The notes under the pieces: model-generated
Seen by the model: only the letters and a program-made list of their open reading frames with translations
Databases searched by the model: none
What the model was told of the DNA's origin: nothing
Position numbers and translations under genes: made by a program
Shown here: positions 41,658-64,000 of the stretch, piece by piece
How positions within the stretch are numbered: the stretch's first letter is position 1
Layout of the letters: every line of letters begins with the position of its first letter
NCBI RefSeq assembly: GCF_021300655.1
Contig: NZ_JAJTNB010000001.1
Span: 133,770-197,769 of the forward strand
Origin: Helicobacter kayseriensis
Lineage (GTDB): Bacteria > Campylobacterota > Campylobacteria > Campylobacterales > Helicobacteraceae
Length of the DNA stretch: 64,000 nt
Direction of reading: 5' to 3'

Positions 41658-42500
41658 TCACGAAAGTATAGCCGCTGAATATTTATGATATTTAATAAGA
41701 TTTTGAATAAGCTGAGTTTTGAGTTTTGTTTGTTCATAGCCAGGATTGTGCAAATTCTTTGCAAAAAAATACTCTAAAGGCAAATTTCCATCATGCCATT
41801 TTCCTCCTAAGCCCATTAAAGTCACATCGATATATCTACAGTGATTATTCAATGCTACATCTAACAACTCCTCTACTTTTCCATTTTTATTATGTAAATG
41901 CATTCCCACATTTACATTATTTAATCCTTGACAAAGCTTCAATGTATTTTCAACATAACTATCTGTAAAAATACTTTCAGTATCCGCAAAATAAATAACA
42001 CGAACTCCCAATGATTGTGCAAATTGTGCAAACTTTATATTTTGCTCTATCGTATTAGATCCGGAACTTGTAAAATTAATAAAAACCTCATAACCAAGCT
42101 CTTGTATTTCTTTAATATGTTGTTCCAAAATAGTTAGATCAGTCTCTATTGACCTAGTAAGAATCCTAATTGCATCCACAACGCTTTCTTCTTGTCTAGG
42201 AATTGTGGTCAATGGTCTTTGTATATCACGCATAGCAGAAAGTTTGGTTTTTCCACTCCATATCTTTTTGCTTTCCATAAAAATTTCTTTCAACCTTTCA
42301 TTTCTTAAACCACAATATCTTAAGTCTCCTCTCCCAGGATCAGCTTCGACATCATGAAAAAAACCCAACTCTAGATAATCAATTTTATTTTTTGCAGCAA
42401 ATGCATAATAGTCTCGACAAAAATCTTCATCAAAAAACCAACCAGTTTGATACCCAGCTTCCCTTAAAGTGCAATCAAAGATTTTAATACCATTAATCAT
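41658..42500 (-). CDS. DRE-TIM metallolyase (HMGL-like) family aldolase/synthase
   Basis: MINGIKIFDCTLREAGYQ matches the D-x-TLRDG-x-Q signature of the HMGL-like family. The start was set at the internal Met to give an 8-nt overlap with the upstream gene. Confidence 0.55.
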   Translation of the reverse strand: MINGIKIFDCTLREAGYQTGWFFDEDFCRDYYAFAAKNKIDYLELGFFHDVEADPGRGDLRYCGLRNERLKEIFMESKKIWSGKTKLSAMRDIQRPLTTIPRQEESVVDAIRILTRSIETDLTILEQHIKEIQELGYEVFINFTSSGSNTIEQNIKFAQFAQSLGVRVIYFADTESIFTDSYVENTLKLCQGLNNVNVGMHLHNKNGKVEELLDVALNNHCRYIDVTLMGLGGKWHDGNLPLEYFFAKNLHNPGYEQTKLKTQLIQNLIKYHKYSAAILS

Positions 42501-43194
42501 CTGTTCTCTCCCTTGAAATTTTCTCAACCCTTCTTCTTTCATATACAAATCGAGCATACTCCAAATCAAACTCATCATCAATATCTATTGCTGAGAACTT
42601 ATCAATTTCCAAAAAATATGGCATCTCACCATAACAAAAACTATTCTTTAGAATTTGTTGTTTTGAGGAAATAAAACATCCATTAACCACAGAAACCCAA
42701 TAAGGTAATTGTTGGGATGGAACATGCCGATCTAAACTATAATTCAAAGGCTTCTTTCTATCCCAAATATAATCTCTGATAACCTTAACCGTTACCAATG
42801 AATCGTAATATTTTGAAAAGATAACATGTTCATAATAAGCCTTTAAAGCTTGTTGAAAAACATACTCATCACACAATGGAGCAACACAGGGCGCCCATAC
42901 AATATGATCTGCATTCAAATCTTTCACAATCCAAGATACAACCTCACCAAATGTGCGGCTTCTCTCATCTGCATATTCTAAAGGTCTTTTTTGCACTTCT
43001 GCACCCTCTTTTTCTGCCATATCTAACATTAAAGAGCTATCACTAGAAACAACTACTCTTTCAATTTCTCTTACCTTTTTGAGTTGTCTTATTTTATGTA
43101 TCAATAAGTTACTTTGATCAAATGGTAGAATATTTTTATTTTTTAATCTTTGAGACCCCTGACGTGCAGCTATAACCGCTATTACTCTTTGCAT
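42493..43194 (-). CDS. Acylneuraminate (nonulosonate) cytidylyltransferase family protein (CTP_transf_3)
   Basis: MQRVIAVIAARQGSQRLKNKNI N-terminal nucleotide-binding motif, ~230 aa, with its own AGGTGA RBS. Confidence 0.7.
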   Translation of the reverse strand: MQRVIAVIAARQGSQRLKNKNILPFDQSNLLIHKIRQLKKVREIERVVVSSDSSLMLDMAEKEGAEVQKRPLEYADERSRTFGEVVSWIVKDLNADHIVWAPCVAPLCDEYVFQQALKAYYEHVIFSKYYDSLVTVKVIRDYIWDRKKPLNYSLDRHVPSQQLPYWVSVVNGCFISSKQQILKNSFCYGEMPYFLEIDKFSAIDIDDEFDLEYARFVYERRRVEKISRERTDD

Positions 43195-43199
43195 CTTTA

Positions 43200-61636: not shown

Positions 61637-62514
61637 TCAAAATAGGAATCATTGGCACAAGTGAAGGAAATGGTCACCCATATTCATTTTCTGCTATTTT
61701 TAATGGTTACAATCAAACAGCAATGAAGGAAAGTGGTTGGATCAATATATATAACTACCTAGAAAATGAACCCAAAGAAAATTTCGGAATTCCAAATGCT
61801 AGAATTACCCATGTATGGTCACAAGATCCTCAAGAGATAATTAAAATTTCCCAAGCCTCAAACGTTCCCAATTTATGCAAAAATTATGAAGAAATGCTTG
61901 ATAAAGTTGATGCTGTCATTATTGCAAGAGATGATTGGAGATCCCACTATCCTATTGCCAAAACCTTTCTTCAAGCCGATAAATTTGTCTTTATTGACAA
62001 GCCGCTTTCACTAAATGATGTGGAGTGCAATTATTTTGAAAATTTTATACAATCAGGCAAGCTCATGAGCTTTTCATCTCTTCATTTTGCAACAGAGCTT
62101 GATGATTTGAGAGCAAAAATCCAACATTTTGGAAAAATAAAACTCATTCGCGGAATCACACCCAAAAACTGGGAGACATACGGAATCCATCTTCTTGATG
62201 GGATATCTGGAGTCTTAAAGTTTTCTCCAACACAAATCACAAAAAATATTTGTAGTCACGAAAGTTTCTACATCAATACCAAAGAAGGTTTTCTTATTCA
62301 AATTGATTGTCTTGGCTTTATGCAATATCCAATGCTTCAGCTTGAATTTTTCTCTGAAGAAAATTACTACAAAGCCAATTGTCTCAATGCATTTTCTTCC
62401 TTTAAGCGTATGCTGACTTACTTTGTTCAAATGATAGAAGGAAAAACAGATATCCCCACAAACCTTCACACACTAAAACAAATGAAAATTCTTCAAAAAG
62501 GAATGAATGCATGA
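61633..62514 (+). CDS. Putative NAD(P)-binding oxidoreductase (Gfo/Idh/MocA-like N-terminus)
   Basis: MIKIGIIGTSEGNGHPYS Rossmann-like start. Otherwise not assignable. Confidence 0.35.
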   Translation: MIKIGIIGTSEGNGHPYSFSAIFNGYNQTAMKESGWINIYNYLENEPKENFGIPNARITHVWSQDPQEIIKISQASNVPNLCKNYEEMLDKVDAVIIARDDWRSHYPIAKTFLQADKFVFIDKPLSLNDVECNYFENFIQSGKLMSFSSLHFATELDDLRAKIQHFGKIKLIRGITPKNWETYGIHLLDGISGVLKFSPTQITKNICSHESFYINTKEGFLIQIDCLGFMQYPMLQLEFFSEENYYKANCLNAFSSFKRMLTYFVQMIEGKTDIPTNLHTLKQMKILQKGMNA

Positions 62515-63164
62515 TCTTAGCAATATTGCAAGCACGTATGAGCTCCTCAAGATTACCTGGCAAAGTGGCTATGGATGCTAATGGACAACCAATGCTTGCC
62601 TATGAAATCTCACGCATTTTGCAATCTCAAAAAATCGATCAGCTTGTTATTGCTACTTCTACCAATCCCGAAGACGATATGATTGAAGAAATCGCAAAAC
62701 AATGTCATATTGAATGCTTTCGAGGCAGTCTAAATAATGTCTTAGATCGATATTATCAATGTGCAAAAAAATATAACGCAACACATATTGTCCGCCTTAC
62801 GGGAGATTGTCCAATTATTGATGCAAATATCATAGATGCAGTGATTCATCTTCATCTACAATCTCAAGCAGATTATACAAGCAATGGCGTTAAGCGCACT
62901 TTTCCGGATGGAATGGATACAGAAATCATGACTTTTGCAACACTTCAGAATGCTTTTTTAAACGCCAAAACACAAGAAGAACTAGAACATGTCACCTATT
63001 ATATCTACACTCATCCTGAGAATTTTCGCATCAAGCATTACTGTAACGACATTGATTATTCCCATATTAGATGGACATTGGATTATCCAAAAGACTATCT
63101 ACTGCTAAAAGACATTATTCAATCTCAGCCAAACAACACCTTTTCTTGGAAAGACTTATTATGA
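62511..63164 (+). CDS. Cytidylyltransferase (SpsF/PseF/LegF-like CMP-nonulosonate synthetase family)
   Basis: MILAILQARMSSSRLPGKVAM N-terminal motif, 217 aa. Confidence 0.7.
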   Translation: MILAILQARMSSSRLPGKVAMDANGQPMLAYEISRILQSQKIDQLVIATSTNPEDDMIEEIAKQCHIECFRGSLNNVLDRYYQCAKKYNATHIVRLTGDCPIIDANIIDAVIHLHLQSQADYTSNGVKRTFPDGMDTEIMTFATLQNAFLNAKTQEELEHVTYYIYTHPENFRIKHYCNDIDYSHIRWTLDYPKDYLLLKDIIQSQPNNTFSWKDLL

Positions 63165-64000
63165 AAGATTTATTTCATCAAATTACACTCTCACAACATA
63201 CAACATTACAAGAAGCCATTCTTCATCTAGAAAAAAATGATTTAGATGGCACCAATCGGGTTGTTCTATATGTTATTGATGAAGATCAAAAACTACTTGG
63301 CTCTATTATGGATGTCGATATTCGTCGATCCGCATTGCAAAATCACCTCTCGCCCCAAACTCCAATTACCCAAATCATGAATCCTGCCCCAAGAAAAATT
63401 ATCGAAGGACAAGAAGTAGATTTGCAAACTTATCAAACTTGGAAAAGATTCCCATTTATTCCAATCGTAAATCAAGACAATAAACTTTTACGCTTTAAAG
63501 CAAATCATGAAATCTATAATTATCCCAACAAAGTGATCATTATGGCTGGTGGTCTTGGCACTCGACTAAGACCCCTAACCAACGAAACCCCCAAGCCAAT
63601 GCTTAAAATTGGTGCAAAACCTATTTTGCAAGAGATCATCGAAGGATTTCAAAATAAAGGATTTTCTAGTTTCTTTATTAGCGTCAATTATAAAGCAGAG
63701 GTGATCAAAGAATATTTTAAAGATGGGAAGAAATTTGGCGTCAAAATAAACTATCTAGAAGAAGAAAAACAACTTGGCACATGTGGAAGCATCAAGTTTG
63801 CAGAAAGCTATCTTACCGAGCCATTTTTTGTCATCAATGGCGATATCTTGGCAGATATAGACTACAAACAGCTACTTACTACACACACAACTTCTCAAAA
63901 CGATATTACAGTTTGTATTTTTCCCTATTCTTATACAGTGCCATTTGGTGTAATTGAAGATCATTTAAAGACACCAATCACCATTAAAGAAAAACCAACC
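63161..64000 (+). CDS. CBS-domain-containing sugar-phosphate nucleotidyltransferase (PtmE-like); 3' end beyond the window
   Basis: The open frame from an ATG at 63161 (an ATGA overlap with the upstream stop) gives a CBS-like N-terminal half. It then gives VIIMAGGLGTRLRPLTNETPKPMLKIGAKPIL, the nucleotidyltransferase G-x-G-T-R-L motif. Confidence 0.7.
   Translation, partial: MKDLFHQITLSQHTTLQEAILHLEKNDLDGTNRVVLYVIDEDQKLLGSIMDVDIRRSALQNHLSPQTPITQIMNPAPRKIIEGQEVDLQTYQTWKRFPFIPIVNQDNKLLRFKANHEIYNYPNKVIIMAGGLGTRLRPLTNETPKPMLKIGAKPILQEIIEGFQNKGFSSFFISVNYKAEVIKEYFKDGKKFGVKINYLEEEKQLGTCGSIKFAESYLTEPFFVINGDILADIDYKQLLTTHTTSQNDITVCIFPYSYTVPFGVIEDHLKTPITIKEKPT

Follow-up and report, generated by a model that had tools for sequence, protein, structure and literature searches.

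A probable phase-variable, legionaminic-acid-type glycan island downstream of clpB in Helicobacter kayseriensis

A 64-kb stretch of DNA from Helicobacter kayseriensis (hereafter the window) was analyzed, and its last part, from position 41,636 or so onward, was found to hold a large group of sugar-modifying genes interrupted by poly-G/C tracts. We consider it likely, with a probability of roughly three in four, that a hypervariable island for glycan biosynthesis, phase-variable and of legionaminic-acid type, is inserted directly downstream of clpB and that at least its first 22 kb are seen here. The left edge of the island lies 2 nucleotides (nt) past the clpB stop codon, and on the right the island continues beyond position 64000. 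An earlier note, made from the letters alone, had proposed a surface-glycan contingency locus around nonulosonic-acid genes, and this proposal is supported by the profile scores of LegB and LegC, by a gene module orthologous to one of Campylobacter jejuni, by the lengths of a tract in a GT2 glycosyltransferase gene among close relatives, and by tract variation at the homologous locus of Helicobacter cinaedi.

Gene families were assigned with Pfam and NCBIfam profiles, and NCBIfam trusted cut-offs were applied for equivalog-level calls. The window was compared with two Logan assemblies, L012 and L013, which are about 97% identical to it in DNA over the shared parts; with the H. cinaedi locus from three complete genomes (L006-L008); with metagenomic relatives (L134-L137); and with a related organism (L001). 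The loci of H. pametensis and H. cappadocius were found among the matches listed for the pattern G10-ATAAAC in genome contigs, a pattern that is unspecific. A search of genome contigs with FkbH peptide patterns found no relative, and a megablast of clpB against a plasmid collection gave no match.

Seven G/C tracts are clustered in the island

Exactly seven runs of G or C of at least 9 nt are present in the window:

41631-41641, minus strand: C11 (G11 on the minus strand), where clpB and an HMGL-like gene converge at their 3' ends, 17 nt past the HMGL-like stop and 2 nt past the clpB stop
43494-43506, minus strand: C13 (G13 on the coding strand), 3' end of a cytidylyltransferase-like gene
46045-46057, minus strand: C13 (G13 on the coding strand), inside the GT2 gene
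52704-52714, plus strand: G11, inside a VOC gene
54992-55002, plus strand: G11, 3' end of the gene for LbH acyltransferase 1 (LbH1)
55642-55651, plus strand: G10, 3' end of the gene for LbH acyltransferase 2 (LbH2)
56896-56904, plus strand: C9 on the coding strand, in the middle of a GNAT gene

Their lengths range from 9 to 13 nt, and all of them fall within 15.3 kb (41631-56904). With a window GC content of 36.0%, the analytic expectation for such runs is 0.04; thus, the clustering of seven runs in 15.3 kb is real and far beyond chance. Six of the seven read as G on the transcribed strand, the GNAT tract being C on the coding strand. No A/T run of at least 9 nt occurs in the window, and no simple-sequence repeats besides homopolymers were found. 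Apart from the seven tracts, only one G/C run in the window reaches 7 nt, a C7 at 2461-2467 within a minus-strand open reading frame (ORF) at 1510-3327.

Frame outcomes were simulated for each tract at lengths from -2 to +2 nt, and the tracts sort into three classes: ON/OFF tracts (GT2, VOC and GNAT), C-terminal tracts (the cytidylyltransferase-like gene, LbH1 and LbH2) and a tract that forms part of a terminator at the boundary. The earlier note had counted seven tracts and placed six of them in genes. Both counts are correct, except that the first tract lies 17 nt outside the region as it had been delimited (from 41658); the six are indeed in ORFs, but three of them sit at the extreme 3' end and alter the protein tail alone. 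The contingency architecture that it described holds overall, with classic ON/OFF switches making up only three of the seven tracts. In such an architecture, slipped-strand mispairing at the poly-G tracts would randomise which decorations get made.

ON/OFF switches in GT2, VOC and GNAT genes

The three genes with ON/OFF tracts are as follows:

45212-46323, minus strand: GT2 glycosyltransferase, phase OFF, split into ORFs of 94 and 253 amino acids (aa); PF00535 at 84.6 bits on the N-terminal ORF
52401-52793, plus strand: VOC/glyoxalase-fold protein (methylmalonyl-CoA-epimerase-like, PF13669), orthologue of Cj1301, phase OFF, with the last ~30 residues frameshifted
56574-57281, plus strand: GNAT acetyltransferase (PF13302), phase ON

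For the GT2 gene, a tract of C11 or C14 restores a protein of 369-370 aa in the simulation, and the 13 nt found here correspond to the OFF state. The same tract is C11 in L012, where the gene encodes 374 aa and is ON, and C10 in L013, where a 93-aa fragment remains and the gene is OFF. The length polymorphism that the earlier note had asked for is seen at this site: 13, 11 and 10 nt among three related sequences, in the order OFF, ON and OFF. This variation supports phase variation directly; it was seen between DNAs about 97% identical, not inside one population. In a related species (L134), the site carries G20.

The VOC gene at G11 ends in a wrong 26-residue tail. At G10 or G13 it would encode 137-138 aa with a tail that aligns with the C. 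jejuni orthologue (...IVPIM.A.YF..LCFIMM.N.LLIELVE), and the stop codon of this ON frame overlaps the start of the FkbH gene downstream. A tract at this site is kept in L001, H. didelphidarum and H. cinaedi, and it measures 10, 10 and 14 nt in the three H. cinaedi strains. In the simulation, gain or loss of 1 or 2 nt at the GNAT tract cuts the protein to 113-125 aa.

The positions of the tracts are also conserved on a wider scale, since the sites in GT2, in VOC and at the LbH C-terminus are kept across species whose proteins are only 46-78% identical. The homologous locus of H. cinaedi holds nine poly-G tracts in 21.6 kb, and seven of these nine vary in length among the three strains. Among the metagenomic relatives, one site measures 12, 15, 12 and 15 nt, and another ranges from 14 to more than 34 nt. 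In these relatives, the contigs break at the G20 of the GT2 site and at the poly-C of 14 to more than 34 nt (e.g., L134 at 12417-12486 and 7091-7110).

Two further observations concern these tracts and the GT2 family. In H. cinaedi, six of the nine tracts (near 45, 3090, 3800, 7135, 12291 and 18525 in L006-L008) share the 5' flank TTTTAAC in non-homologous genes, giving ...(I/F/N)LTGGGG; the tract could have been copied together with its flank, or the flank could reflect a sequence preference. Another GT2 gene, at 37722-38849 on the minus strand, upstream of clpB and outside the island, is conserved in L012; at the DNA level, it shares about 74% identity with the N-terminal portion of the phase-variable GT2 gene of the island.

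A legionaminic-acid-type nonulosonate pathway

The genes that point to the chemistry of the island lie on the plus strand in two blocks:

46401-47414, plus strand: LegB, NAD-dependent NDP-sugar 4,6-dehydratase (TIGR04180, 495.9 bits, cut-off 475)
47365-48168, plus strand: TylF-type O-methyltransferase (PF05711, 49.7 bits)
48165-49352, plus strand: LegC-family aminotransferase, DegT (TIGR04181, 505.4 bits, cut-off 420)
58353-59000, plus strand: HAD-superfamily phosphatase (PF00702, PF13419)
58979-59914, plus strand: divergent GT2-like glycosyltransferase, 311 aa, no Pfam match above cut-off
59905-60960, plus strand: NeuB-family nonulosonic-acid synthase (PF03102, 234 bits, with a SAF domain)
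60953-61636, plus strand: PIG-L/LmbE-family deacetylase (PF02585, 77.7 bits)
61633-62514, plus strand: Gfo/Idh/MocA oxidoreductase (PF01408)
62511-63164, plus strand: cytidylyltransferase CTP_transf_3, candidate CMP-nonulosonate synthetase (PF02348, 112 bits)
63161-64000, plus strand: CBS and nucleotidyltransferase domains, PtmE-like, cut by the window end (PF00571, PF00483)

LegB, LegC, the NeuB-family synthase, the PtmE-like protein and the cytidylyltransferase suggest that the pathway would yield a nonulosonate of legionaminic-acid type. The best relative of the NeuB-family protein in the Protein Data Bank (PDB) is a sialic acid synthase of Leptospira. The cytidylyltransferase at 62511-63164 matches no equivalog, and its best PDB match is another cytidylyltransferase (6oew, E = 2.6e-42). 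A PDB sequence search with the 311-aa protein gave nothing significant. In L001, a PF00535-bearing gene takes the corresponding position, and its product shares 39% identity with the 311-aa protein from end to end. The NeuB, PIG-L, CTP_transf_3 and CBS-nucleotidyltransferase block recurs in L001, where the Gfo/Idh/MocA gene is missing and the last two genes stand in the opposite order; the NeuB proteins are 73% and the PIG-L proteins 82% identical.

The earlier note had left the pathway as legionaminic or pseudaminic. Its legionaminic half is upheld by LegB and LegC, which exceed their cut-offs, and the pseudaminic half is rejected, as all Pse equivalog scores fall far below theirs (PseB 70.8 against 407.75, PseC 211 against 423.5, PseH 27 against 93, PseI 251.8 against 340 and PseF at most 71 against 205.7). 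Every enzyme class that it had named was recovered by Pfam or NCBIfam, the CstII/DUF115-like transferase with a score below the cut-off.

Acyl and decoration genes

Between the two blocks lie genes for acyl transfer and other modifications:

49361-49651, plus strand: putative acyl carrier protein (ACP), 96 aa, with a DSLSLV motif and no Pfam match
49656-50384, plus strand: FabG-like short-chain dehydrogenase (SDR; PF13561, PF00106)
50323-51723, plus strand: AMP-binding acyl ligase (PF00501, PF13193)
51808-52125, plus strand: second SDR, a C-terminal fragment covering only profile positions 155-235 of PF13561
52187-52417, plus strand: ACP-like small protein of the FkbH module, 76 aa, recognized by similarity to small ORFs of relatives
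52808-54394, plus strand: FkbH-domain HAD-IIIC protein, orthologue of Cj1302 (TIGR01686, 326 bits, cut-off 146.65)
54381-55049, plus strand: LbH1 (PF00132), 222-aa long form here
55046-55660, plus strand: LbH2 (PF00132; NeuD/PglB/VioB subfamily match below cut-off), 204-aa short form here
55688-56590, plus strand: sugar N-formyltransferase, Fmt/ArnA-like (PF00551, PF02911)
57308-58345, plus strand: ATP-grasp ligase (PF15632, PF02655)

The assignment of the 96-aa protein as an ACP is probable at best from its motif; it is kept in H. pametensis at 66% identity. The small ORF that precedes VOC in L001 encodes a protein with 67% identity to the 76-aa ACP-like protein; for the counterpart in the C. 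jejuni locus, the identity is 56%. The 76-aa ORF is missed by ORF-length filters, lies in an apparent intergenic gap of 276 nt and overlaps the annotated start of VOC. For the FkbH protein, identity is 100% to an H. kayseriensis protein and 49% to that of C. jejuni, and several further proteins of the island have entries in two H. kayseriensis accession sets. Together, the ACP-like, VOC and FkbH proteins are orthologous to the Cj1299-1302 region of C. jejuni at 49-56% identity, and the C. jejuni trio is located between pseB/pseC/Cj1295 and fabH2, inside the flagellin glycosylation locus.

By FkbH chemistry, such a module would load a glyceryl unit on the ACP, and together with the O-methyltransferase it could yield an acyl group of O-methylglyceroyl type. 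In C. jejuni, cj1302 has been named an fkbH gene and cj1301 an epimerase (PMC7099621), and the flagellin carries di-O-methylglyceroyl pseudaminic acid (PMC3068675). The PIG-L deacetylase, the two LbH proteins, the formyltransferase, the GNAT protein and the ATP-grasp ligase would fit alternative N-acylation of sugar amino groups. With the FkbH/VOC/ACP and ACP/SDR/acyl-ligase sets and the O-methyltransferase added to these, the set of acyl and modifying enzymes is unusually rich.

LbH1 and LbH2 (54381-55660) are tandem paralogues with mosaic identity. Over the 5' 300 nt, their DNA shares about 88% identity; the value falls to about 55% in the middle and rises to about 93% over the last 60 nt and the tract. 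This profile suggests that a gene was duplicated and that the substrate-facing part then diverged or was exchanged.

Mosaicism between strains and the left edge of the island

The genes upstream of the island encode a GT2 protein, a Ctp protease, an acyltransferase, an ABC-F protein, Ddl and MurF, with clpB as the last gene of this housekeeping set. Relative to L012, the window contains an extra module of 4.3 kb (41636-45946), which carries the genes of the aldolase, of the two cytidylyltransferases and of the DUF115 transferase and, for GT2, another version of the C-terminal two-thirds. On the left, this module has its breakpoint inside the boundary tract, and on the right inside the GT2 gene. 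A one-gene methyltransferase cassette (47415-48173) is without counterpart in L012 or L013, where LegB abuts LegC. Conversely, L012 has a 1.7-kb segment with KAS III, ACP and SDR genes where the window has 47 nt (51792-51839), and the SDR fragment at 51808-52125 is the remnant of a deletion that removed KAS III, the ACP and the N-terminus of the SDR. Cassette gain and loss between strains thus forms a second layer of diversity.

The boundary tract is also likely to be the 5' arm of a predicted intrinsic terminator of the minus-strand operon. In the minus-strand RNA, its G11 pairs with CCUCCACUUCCCC, inside the 3' end of clpB, and U8 follows; the fold has an energy of -24.5 kcal/mol (z = -2.65). 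A consensus terminator scan missed this hairpin, and a consensus promoter scan of the window gave sites no more numerous than in shuffled sequence. Homology to L012 ends inside the tract, of which L012 retains C7 (G7 on the minus strand), and the tract thus marks the exact left edge of the strain-variable DNA, a recombination boundary. As the flanking sequence differs along with the C11 and C7 lengths, slippage is not shown at this tract.

Phase variation or decay

A rival to the phase-variable island is that the tracts might be non-functional mutational debris or homopolymer assembly errors, with the split genes being ordinary pseudogenes. Short-read assemblies can miscall the lengths of long homopolymers, and genuine decay is present in the island, as seen in the SDR fragment and the KAS III deletion. 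Moreover, no difference in phase is seen between the two H. kayseriensis assemblies on deposit, which give the same products at five tract-bearing ORFs and may not be independent isolates. Such an origin is nevertheless very improbable when seven tracts are found against 0.04 expected, all in one island, when tract positions in GT2, in VOC and at the LbH C-terminus are conserved across species at 46-78% protein identity, and when close relatives hold full-length alleles.

The agreement of the two assemblies and the possible miscalls weigh against our interpretation of the region as a phase-variable, legionaminic-type island, and so do several other points. Within the species, length variation is documented for the GT2 tract only, the difference at the boundary tract standing beside differing sequence. 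The NeuB-family protein scores below both equivalog cut-offs (NeuB_NnaB 313.7, cut-off 399.65; PseI 251.8, cut-off 340). No Epimerase_2 gene, that is, a hydrolysing 2-epimerase of NeuC/LegG type, is found in 41658-64000, and it may lie past the window end. Finally, there are no genes for full-length Maf (DUF115 proteins of about 600 aa) or flagellin in the window, nor for DUF2920.

C-terminal tracts and the junctions that follow them

The three remaining intragenic tracts belong to LbH1, LbH2 and the following gene:

43200-44177, minus strand: cytidylyltransferase-like protein, 325-aa long form here (PF02348, 27.1 bits)

For these three tracts, the simulation shows no switch between full-length and truncated products, only a change of the tail, with products of 228-325 aa (43494), 207-222 aa (54992) and 202-216 aa (55642). 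The cytidylyltransferase-like domain ends naturally near residue 225. All 584 homologues retrieved from 1.84 billion representatives end at query residues of about 211-228, and none covers residues 230-325; the nearest of them, P0121, has 228 aa and shares 62% identity. At G13, the frame continues for 97 codons up to the start of the next gene, and the other lengths give 228-235 aa. This read-through frame is open over 290 nt, in which both other frames carry many stops, and an open frame across the spacer was obtained in only 1 of 5000 dinucleotide shuffles (p = 0.0004). That the 97-residue extension is a genuine extra domain was considered and rejected, as none of the 584 homologues has it.

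A similar arrangement is seen at the LbH genes. The LbH1 stop at G11 overlaps the LbH2 start (ATGA), and at other lengths translation would stop 27-45 nt upstream of that stop. A tract of G11 in LbH2 would lengthen the ORF to overlap the formyltransferase start. In the states found here, the cytidylyltransferase-like protein and LbH1 are long and LbH2 is short; both long and short states occur at homologous junctions among the H. cinaedi strains. Poly-G at the LbH C-terminus was found in H. kayseriensis (twice), H. pametensis, H. cappadocius, H. didelphidarum and H. cinaedi (twice), and a tract-free LbH paralogue of H. cinaedi ends a few residues before the tract position.

At these C-terminal junctions, two frames stop within 0-7 codons and the third stays open across the spacer. 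In the junctions inspected, from six species, the long frame has its stop on the next start codon or directly beside it (ATGA, TAATG or GTGA), or at most a few nt away. Of nine spacers tested, all nine have exactly one open frame, and the per-spacer p-values from dinucleotide shuffles combine to about 0.02 by Fisher's method. The read-through architecture recurs in H. kayseriensis, H. pametensis, H. cappadocius, H. didelphidarum, H. cinaedi and one further relative. Nearly all other plus-strand junctions of the operon overlap or are at most 8 nt apart; therefore, the long state restores the coupled layout of the operon, and the short states open an untranslated gap.

These features raise the possibility that the C-terminal poly-G tracts are a distinct phase-variable switch of translational coupling (or anti-polarity) in the glycan islands of enterohepatic Helicobacter, a proposal that we advance tentatively and hold to be rather unlikely as it stands. 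The upstream enzyme would be made intact in all frames. In one length class out of three, ribosomes would cross the stop-free spacer and terminate on the next start codon, coupling or protecting the downstream cistron; in the other two classes, translation would end where the enzyme naturally does, and the following 25-290 nt would not be translated. In this way, one tract would control the next gene without inactivating its own. The consistent layout, with read-through to the next start, is the sole partly novel element of our results, and we read the three tracts of the window as switches of translational coupling and polarity that would act on the downstream gene and not on the upstream enzyme, a role that is plausible but unproven. 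Three points weigh against coupling. The short spacers are individually weak (p of about 0.87-0.89 each). The downstream genes carry their own Shine-Dalgarno-like sequences (AGGTGA, AAAGGA and GGGGGA). In codon usage, the 97-codon read-through scores 0.09, between genes (0.26) and off-frame sequence (-0.38), a value that does not separate a translated spacer from a young domain.

The last two points also speak for C-terminal phase variation of the upstream enzyme itself, in which tails of 0-97 residues would alter its activity, oligomerisation, partner binding or stability and the downstream gene would be unaffected. The tails do alter in the frame simulation, the 97-codon frame is mildly coding-like, and such a reading has been published for tracts of this kind in an island of the same kind in H. 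canadensis (PMC2823697), where Table 2 describes the pattern that tracts 43494, 54992 and 55642 also show. The tails, however, are unrelated among LbH paralogues and orthologues that retain the tract, the 97-residue tail is without homologue among the 1.84 billion representatives, and the catalytic domains are complete ahead of the tract. A function of the tail would also not predict that the long frame always ends on the next start codon. We regard this alternative as unlikely, yet a real contender.

A third possibility is that the G-repeats on the sense strand bind a small RNA (sRNA) like RepG, with its C/U-rich loop, and that tract length gives graded post-transcriptional control. All but one of the seven tracts read as G in the transcribed direction, several tracts lie 36-290 nt upstream of the next start codon, and RepG of H. 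pylori controls a glycan gene through a variable G-repeat (PMC8295292). We nevertheless find this improbable. No Rfam family scores above threshold anywhere in the window, although an sRNA could be encoded elsewhere; the pattern of two frames that stop and one that reaches the start is a property of the reading frame, which an sRNA does not explain; and GT2, VOC and GNAT are plainly frame-switched.

One tract of a relative has a different placement. In H. didelphidarum (L002, 19915-19927), a G13 at the 3' end of a gene for a Rieske protein lies 3 nt before the ATG of an SDR gene (G13-TAA-ATG), in the Shine-Dalgarno position.

The minus-strand module and the glycan acceptor

The genes on the minus strand form a separate module, composed of an aldolase, two cytidylyltransferases, a DUF115 transferase and the GT2 gene. 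Besides the genes given above, it contains the following:

41658-42581, minus strand: HMGL-like (DRE-TIM) aldolase-family protein, last gene of the module (PF00682, 45.3 bits)
42493-43203, minus strand: cytidylyltransferase CTP_transf_3 (PF02348, 54.5 bits)
44304-45170, minus strand: DUF115/MptE-like, sialyltransferase-like putative ulosonic-acid transferase, 288 aa, assigned from homologues and a structure model

The HMGL-like protein matches models of 4-hydroxy-2-oxovalerate aldolase weakly, and its gene is absent from L012. The probable start of the cytidylyltransferase at 42493-43203 is the ATG at 43194, and its score with the PseF model is 71 bits (cut-off 205.7). For the 288-aa protein, the PF01973 score is 20.3 bits, below the cut-off of 34.6, and most of its homologues carry PF01973. 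A PDB sequence search with it returned nothing significant. Its AlphaFold model (pLDDT 87.6) has remote Foldseek matches to CstII, Cst-I, Pasteurella and human sialyltransferases and MptE, the match to CstII having E = 3e-4 and a TM of only 0.38-0.46. In the glycan cluster of another organism, a homologue of the 288-aa protein is paired with a 62%-identical cytidylyltransferase. The clpB-adjacent module of L134-L137 has an HpcH/HpaI aldolase in place of the HMGL-like one, and three cytidylyltransferases.

The acceptor of the glycan may be flagellin or else lipo-oligosaccharide (LOS) or capsule. Modification of LOS or capsule instead of flagellin is a serious possibility, if one that falls short of being probable. 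It accords with the GT2 enzymes and the single-domain DUF115 transferase found here without full-length Maf, DUF2920 or flagellin genes, with the recurrence of the DUF115 and cytidylyltransferase pair in a polysaccharide-type cluster with an ABC transporter, and with the kps capsule-export locus known in H. canadensis (PMC2823697). Flagellin, on the other hand, is suggested by the closest characterised FkbH and VOC orthologues, which belong to the flagellin O-glycosylation locus of C. jejuni (PMC7099621). There are also no polysaccharide export or polymerase genes in the window, and the island extends past 64000, where transferases may lie. A further argument for flagellin came from a 592-aa protein next to NeuB in H. 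cinaedi; Pfam found no Maf/DUF115 domain in it, and the argument therefore failed.

Comparison with known systems

In its workings, the locus resembles two known systems, the C. jejuni flagellin glycosylation locus and the island HCAN_0630-0663 of H. canadensis. The first counterpart is the large Pse/Leg nonulosonate biosynthesis and decoration locus of C. jejuni NCTC 11168 (Cj1293-Cj1342). The C. jejuni flagellin O-glycosylation locus has ten poly-G/C tracts, nine intragenic and one intergenic (PMC3068675), and its gene content varies from strain to strain (PMC7099621). It shares with the window the LegB/LegC-type genes, a PtmE-type enzyme (in the window PtmE-like by its domains) and the module of ACP, VOC (Cj1301), FkbH (Cj1302) and FabH. 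In contrast, the C. jejuni tracts examined are in the middle of genes (Cj1295 and DUF2920 genes), whereas half of those in the window are at C-termini or junctions. The window lacks pse, DUF2920 and full-length maf genes, and it adds the PIG-L deacetylase, the formyltransferase, the ATP-grasp ligase and the module of aldolase and cytidylyltransferases. As far as it lies in the window, the region is therefore not a flagellin island of the Campylobacter type, although the FkbH/VOC/ACP sub-module is shared.

A second counterpart, likened here by its published description, is found in H. canadensis NCTC 13241, likewise an enterohepatic Helicobacter with many poly-G tracts. In this strain, all 29 of 29 tracts vary in the read data, and they are clustered in the island HCAN_0630-0663, where the genes with tracts include a 3-oxoacyl-ACP reductase and a formyltransferase, both with C-terminal tracts, and methyltransferases (PMC2823697). 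Eight genes have at least G10 at the 3' end, with frames that differ in tail length only, and one of them fuses with the downstream ORF (PMC2823697). That island, unlike ours, was not interpreted as a nonulosonate locus, and no link to a downstream start, to coupling or to polarity was proposed (PMC2823697).

The loci of H. cinaedi, H. pametensis, H. cappadocius and H. didelphidarum are also comparable. They resemble the window in LegC (65-72% identity), FkbH, VOC, LbH paralogues, a formyltransferase and NeuB, and in poly-G at the VOC and LbH C-terminal sites with strain-variable lengths, but differ in gene order and accessory content. H. cinaedi in particular has radical-SAM, MaoC and NeuC-like genes (Epimerase_2 next to NeuB), a NeuB that is only 36% identical, and the TTTTAAC tract flank, which is specific to it.

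The RepG/tlpB-hp0102 system of H. pylori offers a more distant parallel, with a variable sense-strand G-repeat upstream of a glycan-biosynthesis gene within an operon (PMC8295292). The H. pylori repeat, however, is in a 5' untranslated region, pairs with an sRNA and acts in a graded manner, whereas the repeats of the window are in or at the end of ORFs and specific to the reading frame.

In related pathogens, surface glycans that vary in this manner affect the evasion of immunity and of phages, and the locus is therefore worth targeting when emerging Helicobacter species are typed or their glycans analyzed. Our analysis links the island type described in H. canadensis to a probable legionaminic-acid-type chemistry and to the Cj1299-1302 acyl module, and brings together three levels at which one species diversifies: slippage of tracts, cassettes of single genes and exchange of the C-terminal domain of GT2. 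It also offers a testable explanation for the unexplained C-terminal phase variation, in that the long frame ends on the next start codon at every junction examined. As the C. jejuni loci are well known and the H. canadensis island was described in 2010, the main finding extends a known strategy of diversification, here to a recently named Helicobacter of the bird gut.

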